From the IMG/VR virus record IMGVR_UViG_2561511241_000010: a stretch of DNA of 37,472 nucleotides, one strand, 5' to 3'. Within the stretch, counting starts at the first letter, position 1; the number at the start of each line of letters is the position of its first letter. The stretch comes from a virus (taxonomy: Duplodnaviria > Heunggongvirae > Uroviricota > Caudoviricetes). The notes below the pieces were generated by a model, which saw only the letters and a program-made list of their open reading frames with translations, did not search any database and had not been told where the DNA came from. The position numbers were made by a program, and so were the translations under genes. Shown in pieces: positions 26,412 through 32,021 of the stretch.

Positions 26412-27041
26412 TCACACCAGCACAGATTTCGCCAGGTTAAACAGCGCGCGGCGTTTATCCAGACCGTTACGGCCGCCATTGATAAGCAGCGTGACGCGCT
26501 CCACATCACCTGAATGGAGCAGGCATCCGTGAGAGACGTAGAACCATGCGGCGGAGCGCGCAGCGTATTCATCTCGTTCCAGTAGTTCGGGATAAGAAAC
26601 CAGATCCAGTTTGAGCGCCTGGCCGCAGCTGTGATAGTTGCTAAGCCCGGTGATTTGCTTAAGGCCTCGCCCGCGATATTTCCAGCCATCGCCAGCAACC
26701 TGGTTGCCCAGGTTCTTTTTGCCCCACTCACCGCCATAAACCAGATTGGCTATCGCTTTCTGATTTGCTGGTTGCGTTGCCGTTCTGCCGAGCGCGGCGG
26801 CCTGCTGTGCAGTAATGCGATGCTTGCCGAACGTAGGTACCAGGTTTTCTGCCGCATAGTTCAGGTTTTCCACCAGCCGGGTGAAACCGCCGGACTCATG
26901 GCCCATCTGCGCGATAAACATGACCTGATCGAGCGGCGCGGTTATGCCGAATTCCTTCATTGCAGCATCGATATAGTGAAACCAGCGCACGGCTAGACTG
27001 GCGCTTATACCTGCCGCCTTTTGAAATTGTGTTTGGTCCAT
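26412..27041 (-). CDS. Endolysin, GH19 (chitinase class I-like) lysozyme
   Basis: 209 aa; region FIAQMGHESGGF...YGGEWGKK...GRGLKQITG matches the GH19 endolysin pattern. Confidence 0.8.
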   Translation of the reverse strand: MDQTQFQKAAGISASLAVRWFHYIDAAMKEFGITAPLDQVMFIAQMGHESGGFTRLVENLNYAAENLVPTFGKHRITAQQAAALGRTATQPANQKAIANLVYGGEWGKKNLGNQVAGDGWKYRGRGLKQITGLSNYHSCGQALKLDLVSYPELLERDEYAARSAAWFYVSHGCLLHSGDVERVTLLINGGRNGLDKRRALFNLAKSVLV

Positions 27042-27322
27042 TAGTGCCTCAGATGATCAACCAGGCGCGCCACGTTGCCTTTAACGGCCACCAGCACGGA
27101 AAGAAAGATGATATTGGCCCCGATGGAGGACCAGGAAGAATGAGGATAAATCCCGCACAGGTACGCAAGCGGTACCGCGCTGTAAGTGACGGTAATCAGC
27201 CATGCCAACCGGGAAACCCACGGGCGATGGCGGGAGTCACCCCGGCGATAAAACATCAGAGTAACCACCACTCCGGCACAGATCAGAGCGTTTAATGTTG
27301 CAGTTGGGTCATTTAGTACCAC
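27041..27322 (-). CDS. Holin/antiholin-like membrane protein
   Basis: 93 aa with about three hydrophobic segments; overlap-coupled between holin and endolysin. Confidence 0.5.
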   Translation of the reverse strand: MVLNDPTATLNALICAGVVVTLMFYRRGDSRHRPWVSRLAWLITVTYSAVPLAYLCGIYPHSSWSSIGANIIFLSVLVAVKGNVARLVDHLRH

Positions 27323-27695
27323 CTGAACCTCCCCGGCGCGTTATCAGCGCCACCAGCGAGCCAACATCCTGGTTATTCAGGAACGTCAGGATTTTGACGG
27401 CTAATGCAGAAATGATTACGGCACCGATGGCGTCCAGAGGTTTATCACTGTAACCGGTCCAGGCAGATAACTTTGAGCCTACCAACCCGGAGCATAAGAT
27501 CCCGGCGATATACGACACTATGAAATATGCCAGCCGGCGGGTTGCACTCAGATCAGCTGCTGTGGCGATGTAGAATACGGCACCTGCAAATGCGCCAAAT
27601 ACCACACCATAATCGGTGCCTGTAAGCAGGCCATAGATACTGGCACCCGTCAGAGCGCCACCGGCTAAGCCAGTGCCGGAAATCGGATCGGACAT
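27309..27695 (-). CDS. Putative holin
   Basis: 128 aa, Gly/Ala-rich hydrophobic segments; first gene of the lysis block. Confidence 0.55.
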   Translation of the reverse strand: MSDPISGTGLAGGALTGASIYGLLTGTDYGVVFGAFAGAVFYIATAADLSATRRLAYFIVSYIAGILCSGLVGSKLSAWTGYSDKPLDAIGAVIISALAVKILTFLNNQDVGSLVALITRRGGSGGTK

Positions 27696-27803
27696 CGGTC
27701 CCCCTCAATGCTGTGAATCCTCTCAATATGAGGGGAAAGAAGGCCGCTAGGCGGCGTTATTGTCACTCTGTCAAAGGCCATCGTAATGACCTTTTGCACA
27801 GTG

Positions 27804-27959
27804 TTATTTACTGGATTTAATCAGAGGCCAGAGCAGCGCAATCACTCCAGCCACCAGCACACCATCAGCAAGGATGGACATCATTTTGCTGGTGAAGTCG
27901 ATGGCAACCACCAGGAACAACAAAACCCCGGCGGCCGCCCAGCGCAGTTTTCCGATCAC
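27804..27959 (-). CDS. Possible small membrane peptide (GTG start)
   Basis: 51 codons from a GTG overlapping the TerB-like stop (GTGA); two hydrophobic stretches; not in the supplied ORF table. Confidence 0.2.
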   Translation of the reverse strand: MIGKLRWAAAGVLLFLVVAIDFTSKMMSILADGVLVAGVIALLWPLIKSSK

Positions 27960-28381
27960 AGGTACTGATCCAGTGGAAGCTGCAGCGCCTGAGCGATTTT
28001 CTTCAGCTGTTTCTCTTCTTCTTCACCGATCCCGTCGTTGTCAGCAACATCGAGACACAGGCACAGAACGTCAACAGCATCATTTGTACCGGCAACGTCA
28101 GCCAGCTCGCGCAGCGCCTGAGCATTAGCGGAGCGCGGCGAGGCTTCGTAGCGCGCGCGAATGTTGCTGCTCATCTGCGCAATTTCTCCGGCGAATGGTG
28201 CGAAGGCAGGCAGTGCCGAAATGGTTTTTTCCAGCGTGGCGATTTCTTTCGCATCGCAGGTACCATCGGCATACGCAATGGAGTAAGCGCCCCATACAGT
28301 CGCCTCAACCGCATCGCGGTTTTCCATTTTCTTAACTTCAGTAACGGCTTTACGAGCTTTCTTTTTGAAGATACCGAACAT
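27956..28381 (-). CDS. TerB-like (tellurite-resistance TerB family) protein
   Basis: 141 aa; helical pattern with acidic C-terminus (DNDGIGEEEEKQLKKIAQAL) resembling TerB-domain proteins. Confidence 0.45.
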   Translation of the reverse strand: MFGIFKKKARKAVTEVKKMENRDAVEATVWGAYSIAYADGTCDAKEIATLEKTISALPAFAPFAGEIAQMSSNIRARYEASPRSANAQALRELADVAGTNDAVDVLCLCLDVADNDGIGEEEEKQLKKIAQALQLPLDQYL

Positions 28382-28521
28382 AGTGACTTTCCTTTTAGCG
28401 GGTGAGCCAGCGCTCAGGAATGATCAGCCCACAGAGACAGTCACACCGACCGTTCCCTATGGCTCACCCCTGAAAGGCTCTGTGGTTGGATTGCGCCGAG
28501 CGTGGCGCGAAGAATTACAGG

Positions 28522-28550
28522 CATAAAAAAACCCGCGCTGAGGCGGGTTT
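28522..28550 (-). terminator. tR'-like rho-independent terminator downstream of the Q-like gene
   Basis: Minus strand AAACCCGCC-TCAGC-GCGGGTTT followed by TTTTTTAT, about 90 nt after the Q-like stop. Confidence 0.55.
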
Positions 28551-28636
28551 GATGTCGTGTAGGCGTAATATCCCACGATGGAAAGCATACAGGACAGTTT
28601 TATGCAAAGTCAACACTAACGTGCAAAAAAGTGTCG

Positions 28637-29437
28637 CTATTTGCTCCGATCATATAAATAAGTTGTCGCCTTCTCAAATTCCACTGCTGCGTGAAGCTCC
28701 CCCTGGCGCAGAGTGTCCACCAGCATTTCATAGAAGGGTTTCCAGTTGCGTGACCATGAGGACTGATGGAGGTCAGGGAGACGCTTCAGAATGGCGCGGT
28801 GTACCGTAGCCGAGGAGATAGCAGAGAAGCCATTACCAGAGCAACGTTCACACGTTTTGAAAACCGGTGCGCCGCGGTCTTTGGTCGCTTTGCGGTCCAA
28901 CACTTCGCCTTTACCGCCACACCTGCACCGGGCAAGGATCACTTTCTTTCCTCCGCATGTTCCGCAAACCCTATTCACCAGCTCATTTTTAATCTTCGGG
29001 GCCACAACTTCGGCACCGTCGGCGTCGAAAATACCAGGATGTTTAACCACATCCTCATTCCCGGAGATAAACCCGGTACCGCTGCAACTGTGACATGTCA
29101 CGCTGGTAGCCGCCGAACGGGAGTAATCAGCAAAGGCAAATTGTGCCAGCATCTGCATACACCATCCGAACTGCCCACCAGCTGCTTTGCGCACATTCTT
29201 CGGTGCGACATCCATCGCATATCGCGCCAGCGCCTGAACTGCGAGCTGTTCATCCGTTTTGCTGATTCCCGCTTTACCGAAGAACGCCGCCAGGCCGAAG
29301 CGCGCACGGCTGCTAGTGGTGCCAATTGCCGCCATTACATCTGTTCCTGTAAGGCGGTCCGGAGAGGTTCCTTTCACGTCGTCGCTGATGTGCATTCCTT
29401 GTGGACTAAAATGTTTGAGCGATGATTCCAGTTTCAT
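28637..29437 (-). CDS. Q-like late antitermination protein (zinc-finger)
   Basis: 266 aa with several CxxC pairs (CHSCSGTG, CGTCGG, CRCGG, CERCSG); located between replication genes and the lysis cassette, followed by a terminator. Confidence 0.5.
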   Translation of the reverse strand: MKLESSLKHFSPQGMHISDDVKGTSPDRLTGTDVMAAIGTTSSRARFGLAAFFGKAGISKTDEQLAVQALARYAMDVAPKNVRKAAGGQFGWCMQMLAQFAFADYSRSAATSVTCHSCSGTGFISGNEDVVKHPGIFDADGAEVVAPKIKNELVNRVCGTCGGKKVILARCRCGGKGEVLDRKATKDRGAPVFKTCERCSGNGFSAISSATVHRAILKRLPDLHQSSWSRNWKPFYEMLVDTLRQGELHAAVEFEKATTYLYDRSK

Positions 29438-30405
29438 GCGGCCACCTGCTGTTTTTTATAGAAAACCAGCTCACGAACCTGATCGCCGTTCATGAGCATA
29501 TTGTTGAAATCATCGTGATCCGGCCAGTACACGCTCACGCGCTGCAGGTCATTTTTAGCCATCAGATTTGCGTGAGCGCATTCGCAGGCAGCAGCTAAAC
29601 CCGTAGCGCTTGTCTCGTCGCGGTCGGCAAAAATAATCAGATGCTTAACGCCTGCCGGGACCCGGAATTTCTTCATAAAATTGGCGGTCATAGTCGCCCA
29701 GGTATTCACTTTGTAAATCTGATGTGCAGACAGCGCAGTTTCGATACCTTCAGCGATGCCAAGTGTGCTGGCGACCGGGAACATACGGATAGCGACCGAA
29801 CGAGCGTGATCAAGATAGTTATCTTCCTGCAGCGATTTCTGCCGCTTGGCGCTGGCCCCGATGTCAGCTTTCTTTGCACCATCCAATAACGTCTGATGGA
29901 GGTAACACAGCTCCCCTTTATCGTCTGTTGCCAGTGAATAAATAGACTGGTATACCCGTCCGTTATGCCGTTGCTTGGGGTTGAGTCGCACGGCCTCAGC
30001 CGGAAGCTGATAAATACCGCGTGAATTCAGGTATTCAGCGCCGGATGTACCGCGCAGAGGAGACATTTTTGCAAAGTTGTTGAGTACCTTTCTCCGCAGC
30101 TTGGAGGCGTCGCTAGTCTCGGGAACTTTGTCACGTCTGAACGTATTGCCGATCAGTGCATCGATTTCGCGGCAAACCTCGTTGAATGGTTTGCCCTGGG
30201 TTTCGGTAACCAGCTTAAGCCCGTCACCGCTGCCACAGGTGCAGATCCATGTTCCCGCGCCGTCGCGGTTATCGATGCGGAACTTTCCAATCGAATCACA
30301 CAGCGGGCACTTCCCCTTAAAGTGATTTTTACCGGTGATCGGCGGCAGTCCGTAATGCTCAAAAATCATGGCCCAATGGCCTTTTGCTGCTTCTACCGTT
30401 TTCAT
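29434..30405 (-). CDS. DNA primase (zinc-ribbon plus Toprim)
   Basis: N-terminal CPLC...WICTCGSG zinc ribbon; Toprim-like IAEGIETALS...IIFADRDE. Confidence 0.75.
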   Translation of the reverse strand: MKTVEAAKGHWAMIFEHYGLPPITGKNHFKGKCPLCDSIGKFRIDNRDGAGTWICTCGSGDGLKLVTETQGKPFNEVCREIDALIGNTFRRDKVPETSDASKLRRKVLNNFAKMSPLRGTSGAEYLNSRGIYQLPAEAVRLNPKQRHNGRVYQSIYSLATDDKGELCYLHQTLLDGAKKADIGASAKRQKSLQEDNYLDHARSVAIRMFPVASTLGIAEGIETALSAHQIYKVNTWATMTANFMKKFRVPAGVKHLIIFADRDETSATGLAAACECAHANLMAKNDLQRVSVYWPDHDDFNNMLMNGDQVRELVFYKKQQVAA

Positions 30406-32021
30406 GCTCGTTTTCCTAACTGCTGTCTGATATCACTGACGCGATTAAGCGCCTGCTGAATTCTTTCCTGGGTAGGCAGCTCTTCTACCTGTGCCTGCTG
30501 GCGCTGCTCTTTTTCGATTCGTCTAGCGAAGCTGATCCGCTTGTGCGTAATGAAGTTTGAAACTGTTGGCGTGATGTCCATCGGGTAATCGCTCAGTCCG
30601 TTCGGCCATTCGCCAAAACGTTCGCGGAAGGTGTGAGCACACCAGGCATCGCTGACAGGCTTTTTCCCCAGCGATACGCGCTGGCGCTGATAGAATTTGA
30701 TCTGACTCCACCAGGCTTGTTTCTCTGCCTTCGTCGGCTGGCGCTGCTCGCCCCCAAGTTTTTTGAGTTTTCGCCCGGTGTCGGTATCAATGTCCTCACC
30801 GGCAAGCGGCTTGTGGCCACATTTAGGGCAGACATAGACGCCAGCAGGCTTCATGAAGTGGCATTGCGAGCATTCGTGAGGCAGCTTTTCTGCTCGTTCC
30901 TCAGCTGCGCGGCGCGCGCCCTCCTCCATCCCGTCTGATTTACCCGGAAGATCGTCATATTCGATAGAGTCCGGATAACCTAGGCGGTGCACGGTTCCGC
31001 TGTGATCGAAGATGAGGCAGGACTCTTTACCCGGAGCGGTGCGCAAGCCACGCCCGAGCGCCTGCAGCCAGCGAATTTCGCTCTTAGTTGGCCTGGCGTA
31101 GATGATGCAGCGAACATCGCTGTCGAAACCGGCAACCAGCACCCCTACACTGACGATGATTTTTGTGGCGCCAGTTTCGAAGCGGTGAATGATGGTTTGG
31201 CGTTCTTCCGCAGGCGTATCTGCAGTCATAACCTCTGCATTTACGCCAGCTTGGTTAAACTGAATAGTCAGAAAATTAGCGTGGTCTACGTTGACGCAGA
31301 ACGCGATTGTCGGCAGGTCCCGGCCGTTCTCCAGCCAGTTTTGGACGATATCGCCCACCAGCGTTGAACCGCACATGATCTCCGCCAGCTGCGCCTCGTT
31401 GTAGTCGGTACCGTACTGCAGGGACGGAGAGGTTTTAACCCCTTTCAGATCCGGCTTTGTGGGCGCGTAAAATTCGTATTTGCTCAGGTCGCCGCGCTGG
31501 ATCAGCTCGCCGATGGTGGTTGGCTTAATCAGTCGATCATAGTATTTTCCCAGGAACGGGGAAAACGGTGTCCCCGACAGGCCGATCACTTTCACGCCTT
31601 TTTCGCGCAGGCGTTCGATATCCTGCAGGATGCGTTTTTTCCGCAGGTGAGCTTCGTCGATAATCAGCAGATCGATATTGTCAGGAAACACGCGACGAAT
31701 AAGCGTATCGGCGCTGGCAATTTGTATTTTGAGGGAAGGATCATAGTTTGGGTGATCCGCCCATACATAGCCGATTTCATCACCCGGCAACCCATACTCC
31801 ACAAAACGGTTTGCTGTTTGGGTTATGAGGATCTGGTAAGGCGCGCAAAACATTACACGCATGCCACGACTAACGAACCCAGCAACGATGAAGGCGGCCA
31901 GTCCTGTTTTACCGCTGCCCGTCGGCGAGTACACCATGAAGGTTTCTGTATCCTTCCAGTTACGGCGCAGCTGGTTAAGTGCTCGTTCCTGTGCAAAATT
32001 CGGTGTGATCGTCAGCTGCAT
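30402..32021 (-). CDS. Superfamily 2 DEAD/DEAH-box helicase
   Basis: Walker A SPTGSGKT, DEAH box (LIIDEAH), C-terminal CSQCH...CPKCGH zinc-finger-like motif. Confidence 0.85.
   Translation of the reverse strand: MQLTITPNFAQERALNQLRRNWKDTETFMVYSPTGSGKTGLAAFIVAGFVSRGMRVMFCAPYQILITQTANRFVEYGLPGDEIGYVWADHPNYDPSLKIQIASADTLIRRVFPDNIDLLIIDEAHLRKKRILQDIERLREKGVKVIGLSGTPFSPFLGKYYDRLIKPTTIGELIQRGDLSKYEFYAPTKPDLKGVKTSPSLQYGTDYNEAQLAEIMCGSTLVGDIVQNWLENGRDLPTIAFCVNVDHANFLTIQFNQAGVNAEVMTADTPAEERQTIIHRFETGATKIIVSVGVLVAGFDSDVRCIIYARPTKSEIRWLQALGRGLRTAPGKESCLIFDHSGTVHRLGYPDSIEYDDLPGKSDGMEEGARRAAEERAEKLPHECSQCHFMKPAGVYVCPKCGHKPLAGEDIDTDTGRKLKKLGGEQRQPTKAEKQAWWSQIKFYQRQRVSLGKKPVSDAWCAHTFRERFGEWPNGLSDYPMDITPTVSNFITHKRISFARRIEKEQRQQAQVEELPTQERIQQALNRVSDIRQQLGKRA

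Follow-up and report, generated by a model that had tools for sequence, protein, structure and literature searches.

A four-part accessory cassette between Q and the lysis genes

The window analyzed here is the whole 37,472-nucleotide (nt) DNA of IMG/VR virus record IMGVR_UViG_2561511241_000010, which holds a lambdoid prophage with HK97-type head genes. The queried stretch is identical in the E. coli ETEC1749 chromosome (NZ_CP122712.1), where the prophage is integrated at ssrA, with ssrA/smpB on one side and an integrase gene on the other. On the minus strand, which carries all genes treated here, lies a 746-bp cassette (27764-28509) that, by comparison with related loci, consists of four parts: a 128-nt leader, a tciA-like gene for a TerB-family protein, a tciB-like gene for a small membrane peptide of the DUF3927 family, and a closing hairpin. 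Both genes are already catalogued, being annotated in RefSeq and related to TciA and TciB of phage P1, and the gene-pair finding is thus real but ordinary. The conserved, pseudoknotted leader is the part that merits follow-up. An initial annotation, made without database searches, had correctly described both open reading frames (ORFs), their overlap, and their position, but did not name the minus strand. Its placement of the genes between the terminator after Q and the holin is borne out by the identification of Q, the terminator, and two holin genes. Its interpretation as a whole is only partly supported, and it recognized neither the tciA/tciB identity of the genes nor the structured leader.

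The limits of the cassette were defined with 80 related loci from IMG/VR. Relative to the window, homology breaks on the left at 28507-28509 in 30 of these loci and on the right at 27763/27764 in 38 and at 27748 in 10. The flanking Q genes are 35-98% identical or undetected, and the flanking holins are 34-100% identical and belong to different families, whereas the cassette is 94-100% identical across close loci in which these holins vary. Because the breakpoints recur while the Q and holin flanks vary, we take 27764-28509 to be the unit, a discrete insertion with sharp boundaries between conserved neighbors, as in a moron. Its closing hairpin runs from the tciB stop codon to the right breakpoint (27764..27803, minus strand), as judged from folding and from the breakpoint shared by 38 loci. 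This hairpin is not a classical terminator because it lacks a U run.

The lambdoid moron site, occupied by stx in Stx phages, has the same position between Q and the lysis genes and similarly sharp insertion boundaries. That this interval is an accessory hotspot agrees with phage JLK-2012, which carries a diverged tciA-tciB pair and a homologous leader there. In that phage, Q is followed by three tRNA genes, the leader with its pair, a nanS-p-like gene (annotated yjhS), and the holin gene S. The position of this pair, 3′ of the Q and tRNA genes, is the one that stx occupies in Stx phages. Classical morons are described as independent transcription units with their own promoter (PMC3594210). 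Unlike these, the window cassette ends in a hairpin without a U run and has no promoter-like site that we could find. Specifically, no sigma-70-like promoter was detected between the terminator and tciA (28520-28382) by a simple consensus scan, a method that may overlook promoters that are weak or not of the sigma-70 type. Since the cassette also starts just after the terminator, its suggested expression with the late genes is plausible. The cassette therefore represents a mobile and apparently promoter-less accessory unit just 3′ of the terminator that follows Q.

The larger gene encodes a full-length TerB-family protein

The tciA-like gene (27956..28381, minus strand) was identified from the ORF list and profile searches. 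It has an ATG start preceded at 7 nt by a good Shine-Dalgarno (SD) sequence, AAAGGAAA, and encodes a 141-amino-acid (aa) protein with a basic N-terminal helix and a duplicated DG-x5-E motif. The protein matches PF05099 (TerB) with 29.1 bits against a cut-off of 24.4 (E=1.4e-6), although this match is partial and covers residues 12-57 only. In contrast, phrog_632 (“tellurite resistance”) matches it end to end (3e-64), and its RefSeq entry is WP_000466928.1, “tellurite resistance TerB family protein.” Among 1.84 billion cluster representatives, 189 clusters matched at E<=0.001, and most of the listed full-length relatives are 140-150 aa long. All 96 aligned relatives match PF05099 (best E=1.6e-24), and G40, E46, G117, and E122, which form the duplicated motif, are nearly invariant, each at least 90% conserved in these 96 sequences.

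A profile built from the 96 sequences matches the solved TerB structure of K. pneumoniae (2JXU) with E=7.8e-30, aligning profile positions 5-143 with residues 11-150, and the protein has the all-alpha bundle fold of solved TerB-family structures. A single-sequence search of solved structures did not reach 2JXU and gave only weak centrin (EF-hand) matches (E>=0.07). The gene has a ratio of nonsynonymous to synonymous polymorphism (pN/pS) of 0.04 in the related loci. Taken together, the profile comparisons identify the product as a true, full-length TerB-family member, and the earlier reading of a TerB-like character, for which a TerB profile search had been proposed, is confirmed by the above-threshold PF05099 score and the match to 2JXU.

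The weak matches to centrin and troponin C (E 0.07-0.2) fall on the DG-x5-E repeats at residues 36-47 and 113-124. Homology to EF-hand proteins was considered and rejected, and the matches were taken as motif resemblance; the profile search gave TerB instead. The repeats hint at a cation-binding loop but provide no evidence of homology to EF-hand proteins.

TerB of the terZABCDE operon (2JXU) thus shares with the window protein its Pfam family, full-length profile homology, and all-alpha fold, and it has a reported membrane association. The membrane partner in the ter operon is TerC, whereas the window has the 51-aa DUF3927 hairpin instead. The family name and the homology to TerB could be read as lysogenic conversion, in which the pair would give the host resistance to tellurite, metals, or colicins. 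We consider such a role highly improbable. No terC, terD, terE, terZ, or terA gene is annotated anywhere in the 37-kb prophage, which makes a function in tellurite resistance unlikely, because other ter genes are stated to be needed for this phenotype (PMC12054061; PMC8421299) and TerC-TerD is reported as the minimal functional unit (PMC12054061). Lysogenic conversion is also at odds with the location of the cassette behind a terminator with no promoter detected, and with the occurrence of the pair in virulent phages, which form no lysogens.

The smaller gene encodes a DUF3927 membrane peptide

The tciB-like gene (27804..27959, minus strand) has 51 codons and a GTG start that overlaps the tciA stop codon by 4 nt (GTGA). 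No SD sequence is seen 5′ of this start, which, together with the overlap, fits translational coupling to tciA. The ORF list, profile searches, and hydropathy describe a 51-aa peptide with a C-terminal WPLIK motif and two hydrophobic segments, the predicted membrane helices, with basic residues at both ends. It matches PF13064 (DUF3927; 53.7 bits, with a cut-off of 25) and phrog_1470 (“TciB-like”; 6.5e-23), and its RefSeq name is “DUF3927 family protein” (WP_000579590.1). We found 211 relatives, and the 120 of these that are listed are 47-85 aa long, all with PF13064; where named, they are mostly called “DUF3927 family protein,” and some of their clusters occur on hundreds of Klebsiella contigs. 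The pN/pS of tciB is 0.21 in the related loci, and these polymorphism ratios indicate that both genes are under purifying selection. What had been annotated as a possible hydrophobic ORF is therefore a real membrane protein gene, given its PF13064 and phrog_1470 matches, its pN/pS, and its presence in 80/80 close loci. Neither the TciA-like nor the TciB-like protein matched any PADLOC-DB 2.0 family at E<=1, and neither had an NCBIfam match.

The two genes are coupled across distant phages

The gene tciB lies directly 3′ of tciA in all 80 close loci, and the association extends well beyond them. Peptides with a ..DG..WPL(I/V)K motif follow TerB genes whose products are only 30-45% identical to that of the window, as in P7, JLK-2012, the virulent N4-like Salmonella phage FSL SP-076, the jumbo Erwinia phage ChrisDB, Pseudomonas phage ZY21, and Pantoea phage LIET2. 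In every case examined, the peptide gene starts either in overlap with the TerB stop codon or just beyond it, which suggests co-translation in fixed proportion. These comparisons show that the two genes are tightly linked and have been inherited together in phages that are only very distantly related, so that the association of TerB with a DUF3927 peptide is an old one. In Vibrio phage vB_VpaP-MS02 (our locus L230, 1-1326; L numbers denote our loci throughout), a gene for a TerC/Alx membrane protein lies directly upstream of the TerB gene and stands in place of the downstream DUF3927 peptide gene.

The closest named counterpart is in phage P1, whose TciA is 84% identical to the window protein. 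P1 TciB belongs to the same DUF3927/phrog_1470 family, abuts tciA, and is ~47% identical over 32 residues. The pair is accessory both in P1 and here, but the settings differ. P1 also has tciC, which like that of P7 encodes a 35-aa single-helix peptide, whereas the window has no tciC-like third gene, the only ORF in its 108-nt spacer being a non-hydrophobic 44-codon ORF overlapping the holin start. The P1 pair sits among tRNA genes within the C1-repressed ban operon, with the opposite-strand genes plp and upl immediately upstream of tciA, and P1-like loci lack the leader; the window pair instead follows the Q terminator. Elsewhere, the pair is found beside dUTPase and MoxR-like ATPase genes in the N4-like Salmonella phage and at the left end of the record in the jumbo Erwinia phage.

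Two further observations concern the surroundings of these genes. The pairs adjoin tRNA genes in five unrelated phage groups: P1 (L003 1616-3276), P7 (L231), JLK-2012 (L102 2599-2832), ChrisDB (L226 286-754), and ZY21 (L227 1469-1546). The genes for tRNA-Asn and tRNA-Thr are upstream of the pair in P1, P7, and JLK-2012, while the window has no tRNA gene there. Separately, phage 434 (L004 2612-3844) carries a DUF3927 TciB gene between Q and holin without a TerB gene, flanked by genes for two membrane proteins, one of 247 aa that has no Pfam match and one of 62 aa.

A conserved, pseudoknotted RNA leader precedes tciA

The 128 nt between the left breakpoint and the tciA start codon (28382..28509, minus strand) form a conserved structured leader, as delimited by the breakpoint at 28507-28509 and supported by covariation, tables of paired helix arms, and a covariance model. 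From 5′ to 3′, a variable intrinsic terminator upstream of the leader is followed by hairpin H1, helix A (5′ arm), a YUUUCAG segment that hardly varies, a long hairpin formed by helices B and D, the SD sequence CUAAAAGGAAA, and the start codon. Across phages, leaders are ~110-130 nt long and end in CUAAAAGGAAA-N3-6-AUG, and an intrinsic terminator precedes 124 of 152 distinct leaders. In the window, predicted pairings on the minus strand are H1 (28508-28504 with 28497-28493), E (28502-28498 with 28415-28411), A (28485-28478 with 28436-28429), B (28469-28460 with 28409-28400), D (28458-28454 with 28420-28416), and C (28453-28447 with 28443-28437), together with an anti-SD segment (28477-28473) facing the SD (28395-28391). 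Helices A and E cross B, and A also crosses D, and so they represent pseudoknots or alternative conformers. Nested fold predictions for both leader subtypes pair the YUUUC part of the invariant segment with the SD.

Covariation was counted separately for two subtypes, tciA-type leaders and a second subtype, and was complemented by anchor-based arm tables. A column-wise count over a MAFFT alignment of both subtypes was dropped because the helix arms are out of register between them. Among 32 aligned tciA-type leaders, eight base pairs have changed on both sides, compared with 1.1 +/- 0.9 in shuffled controls (0/500 reach eight) and 0-4 when the pairing is slid. The 51 sequences of the second subtype have nine such pairs, compared with 3.5 +/- 1.1 in shuffles (0/500). 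A covariance model built from the second subtype alone finds the window leader with 46 bits (E ~1e-10), and this is the only copy in the window.

The crossing helices are well represented in the arm tables. Helix A joins the terminal loop of the B/D hairpin to the A 5′ arm and occurs in about a dozen compensated variants, including CCACAGAG:CUCUGUGG, GAAAGU:ACUUUC, CGAUAA:UUAUCG, and CCAUGGAG:CUCCAUGG. Helix E joins the H1 loop to the 3′ bulge between D and B, with arm pairs UCGCACG:CGUGCGA, CGCUCGG:CUGAGCG, CGCCCGG:CCGGGCG, UCGUACG:CGUACGA, and UCGCAUG:CAUGCGA. Arms taken from the same sequence reach 6 bp in 80% of cases for helix A and 92% for helix E, versus 28% and 42%, respectively, when arms from different sequences are mixed. 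Some variants stay paired only by virtue of G-U pairs, which points to an RNA made from the sense strand. On this comparative evidence, the leader is shown to be a conserved RNA that covaries in five helices, two of which would form pseudoknots.

We also considered whether the leader might be a DNA-level linker for recombination that shuffles cassettes, rather than a functional RNA. Lambdoid phages are mosaic, and homologous leaders occur at several positions in one genome and before at least 12 cargo groups, as such a linker would. However, homology breaks off at the 5′ end of the leader rather than within it, and compensatory changes, including strand-specific G-U pairs, keep five helices paired. 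We therefore judge a pure DNA linker to be improbable. A coding reading is excluded because indels among homologous leaders are not multiples of three, and a leader peptide or small ORF at 28457..28588 was rejected for these frame-breaking indels. Comparison by eye gave no convincing likeness to group II intron 5′ ends, HDV-like ribozymes, the RfaH ops element, or HK022 put RNA. Against Rfam 15, neither the window leader (E<=1) nor the second subtype (E<=5) had a relevant match. A limited literature search, which could have missed prior work, found descriptions of unrelated prophage small RNAs (sRNAs) but none of such a leader RNA.

The leader is associated with many kinds of cargo genes

The leader is not restricted to the cassette described above. 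It also precedes a divergent tciA allele with just 43% protein identity (L099, JLK-2012). In the same loci, nhmmer located a second, diverged copy at a distance of 2.3-4.3 kb 3′ of tciA. A 3′ core, GGCTCAC-N2-3-CTAAAAGGAAA, occurs in at least 120 stretches in IMG/VR. The ORFs 3′ of the leader fall into at least 12 unrelated groups in 80 listed loci, and the cargo is TciA in 28 of these. A 272-aa protein resembling the phi80 cargo (annotated N15 gp59-like) accounts for 30 more, and another 272-aa protein with no Pfam match accounts for eight; in mEp390 the annotation beneath the leader match reads “glycosyltransferase.” The phi80 cargo and the 272-aa protein resembling it both have weak Phage_Tail_Tip domain matches. 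The remaining cargo includes a member of the Rha family and several uncharacterized proteins.

The second subtype is widespread among well-known phages and strains. In phi80, an unannotated leader precedes ORF x171.28 just ahead of cosQ (L224 2501-2607), and in HK639 the leader is part of an insert, flanked by terminators, that separates the major tail gene from the tail genes after it (L225 2501-2603). The same subtype occurs in mEp043, mEp213, mEp237, mEp390, and FSL SP-016, and in 125 of 5,426 complete E. coli genomes, including those of DH10B, TOP10, and NEB 5-alpha. A further leader lies at L086 6458-6597. The commonest cargo of this subtype contains part of a Phage_Tail_Tip domain (PF09327) (phi80 x171.28, L224 2609-3337; HK639_13, L225 2609-3289; L105), with scores above the cut-off in phi80 and HK639 and below it in L105 (18.9 bits versus 22). 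Tai defense and Ati counter-defense genes have been described in the region of phi80 upstream of the packaging genes where its cargo sits (PMC11364771).

Several well-studied pseudoknotted translational operators and processed leaders, namely, those of T4 gene 32, E. coli rpsO, the alpha operon, and lambda cIII and N, likewise combine a structured 5′ leader and a pseudoknot with a nearby ribosome-binding site that can be sequestered. The window leader has no sequence or Rfam relation to these, and it differs from them in being portable and in preceding many unrelated cargo genes. We see an even balance for and against the proposal that the leader is an undescribed class of double-pseudoknotted RNA that serves as portable expression control for accessory cassettes inserted after terminators in the operons of enterobacterial temperate phages. 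Its anti-SD segment may act as a gate on translation. A more speculative possibility is that the leader processes or insulates the cargo mRNA, in the manner of a ribozyme or an RNase site, or distinguishes antiterminated transcripts from leaky read-through.

Neighboring features of the locus

The Q-type late antiterminator gene lies outside the cassette (28637..29437, minus strand) and encodes a 266-aa protein that matches PF03589 (E=1.4e-52) and phrog_127 (E=1e-100) and is named “antitermination protein” in RefSeq. A consensus scan and reading of the sequence revealed a promoter-like site, TTGACT-18-TATGCT (28584..28613, read 28613->28584 on the minus strand), which is a candidate for the late promoter PR′. 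The same kind of scan gave a second minus-strand promoter-like site inside the 3′ end of Q (28677->28649). The intrinsic, tR′-like terminator (28520..28550, minus strand), found by terminator scan and sequence, has an 8-bp GC-rich stem (28550->28529) and a T run. The candidate PR′ and this terminator would yield a short RNA of ~55 nt (28522-28577, minus strand), which we take to be the would-be counterpart of lambda 6S RNA and the StxS sRNA.

On the other side of the cassette, two overlapping holin-family genes (27309-27695 and 27041-27322, spanning 27041..27695, minus strand; PF16931 E=4e-36 and PF05449 E=3e-20) are followed by genes for a GH19 endolysin and a spanin. The spacer between tciB and the holins is strongly structured, with a z-score of -3.98 for the fold of 27685-27810 and no equally stable fold among 200 shuffles. 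The third hairpin of this spacer (27699..27737, minus strand), which lies outside the cassette, is predicted by RNA folding to pair the holin SD sequence GAGGGGG (27706-27700) and may control holin translation.

The proximity of the cassette to these genes bears on the lysis-timing function that the initial annotation had inferred. TciA and TciB might modulate holin triggering in an antiholin-like manner, given that the pair adjoins two holin genes in the window and holin genes in many close relatives, and that TciB, like holins and antiholins, is a small membrane protein. However, synteny does not back this idea. The distance from pair to holin is ~110-1500 nt in close relatives, and the adjacency is absent in the P1 ban operon, the N4-like phage, the jumbo Erwinia phage, and JLK-2012, where the pair is 2.4 kb from S. 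Moreover, the cassette keeps its near-identity beside holins of different families. We thus regard a role in lysis timing as very unlikely.

In the replication module of the prophage, a DEAD/DEAH helicase gene (30402-32021, minus strand) is annotated in RefSeq as a frameshifted pseudogene, yet its 539-aa ORF is intact. The ~430 nt upstream of this gene carry no annotation. Given the pseudogene flag and this unannotated stretch, the prophage may be replication-defective.

A model for the function of the cassette

We have high confidence in the identity of the two genes and modest confidence in the mechanism considered here. In the model that we favor, transcription of the cassette would require Q-modified RNA polymerase to read through the terminator and would be confined to late lytic growth. 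TciB, presumably with its N and C termini both cytoplasmic, would anchor TciA at the inner membrane, in a role equivalent to that of TerC toward TerB in ter operons. The TciA-TciB complex would then sense, or buffer, a disturbance of the membrane or of divalent ions by which the infection would otherwise be aborted. An infected cell might thereby stay productive when faced with insults directed at the membrane, such as colicins, superinfecting phage, or membrane-triggered abortive defense. The anti-SD segment of the leader would pair with the ribosome-binding site of tciA, limiting translation from leaky read-through and releasing it on late transcripts. As a whole, the combination of a promoter-less cassette, late read-through, TciB-anchored TciA, and leader-limited translation is a tentative model that we consider somewhat more likely to be wrong than right.

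Two lines of published work lead us to favor a membrane anchor. TerB has been reported to be membrane associated and to form a TerC-TerB complex (10.1101/2022.05.11.491447; PMC12054061), and the TerB domains of the defense systems Bunzi, Shango, and Dionysus have been proposed to survey the membrane (10.1101/2025.09.30.679545). The presence of the pair in virulent phages and in the C1-repressed ban operon of P1, and the lack of a promoter-like site in the window, argue for a role in lytic growth, during which the pair appears to be made. The physical contact between TciA and TciB is putative, and the stress function that the initial annotation had inferred is a guess.

The main rival to this model is a decoy directed against TerB-based host defense. 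TciA held at the membrane by TciB would mimic the TerB sensor of Shango, Bunzi, Dionysus, or ter and titrate its signal or partner, whereby the phage would escape abortive infection. Like the cassette, the three defense systems place a TerB domain in a membrane context, and these systems are validated. The pair is found in both virulent and temperate phages and is apparently made in lytic growth, and it is dispensable in a laboratory host and patchily distributed, as is often the case for counter-defense genes. These systems are nevertheless host-encoded and multi-component, with effectors, whereas the cassette has no effector gene and neither of its proteins is hit by a PADLOC model. Among solved structures, the nearest relative is a ter-operon TerB rather than a defense-system protein, and many hosts of these phages lack known TerB-containing systems. 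On balance, a decoy seems unlikely to us.

Several points weigh against the membrane-anchor model itself. In P1, tciA, tciB, and tciC were scored as non-essential by CRISPR interference (PMC10695390), and tciABC is a variable region of P1-like plasmids that has been lost in nearly half of one subgroup (PMC9603915). Our literature search found no experiment that gives any TciA or TciB a function. The TerB gene of phage PMBT3 has no small membrane partner gene beside it. A 196-aa protein, P0082, in which a TerB domain is fused in frame to a DUF3927 peptide, comes from one Logan contig; it represents either a genuine fusion or a single-base frameshift where the stop and start codons overlap. Because no TerB-DUF3927 fusion exists among the 120 listed TciB relatives, the Rosetta-stone argument from this single contig was dropped. 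Late-only expression depends on a consensus scan that can miss promoters, metal binding by the DG-x5-E motifs is an assumption, and a regulatory role for the leader is suggested by its structure alone.

Implications

The gene pair by itself adds little, as it is a catalogued module, and its “tellurite resistance” label is probably misleading. Even so, the ancient pairing of TerB with DUF3927 and its apparent expression in lytic growth narrow the search for its function. If the leader is a functional RNA, it would be a common but unannotated regulatory element that stands before several kinds of accessory genes, including those of phi80 and HK639, and it could serve synthetic biology as a compact natural 5′ insulator. 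In that case, it would also shed light on how cassettes lacking a promoter are switched on or kept silent within the late operons of these phages.

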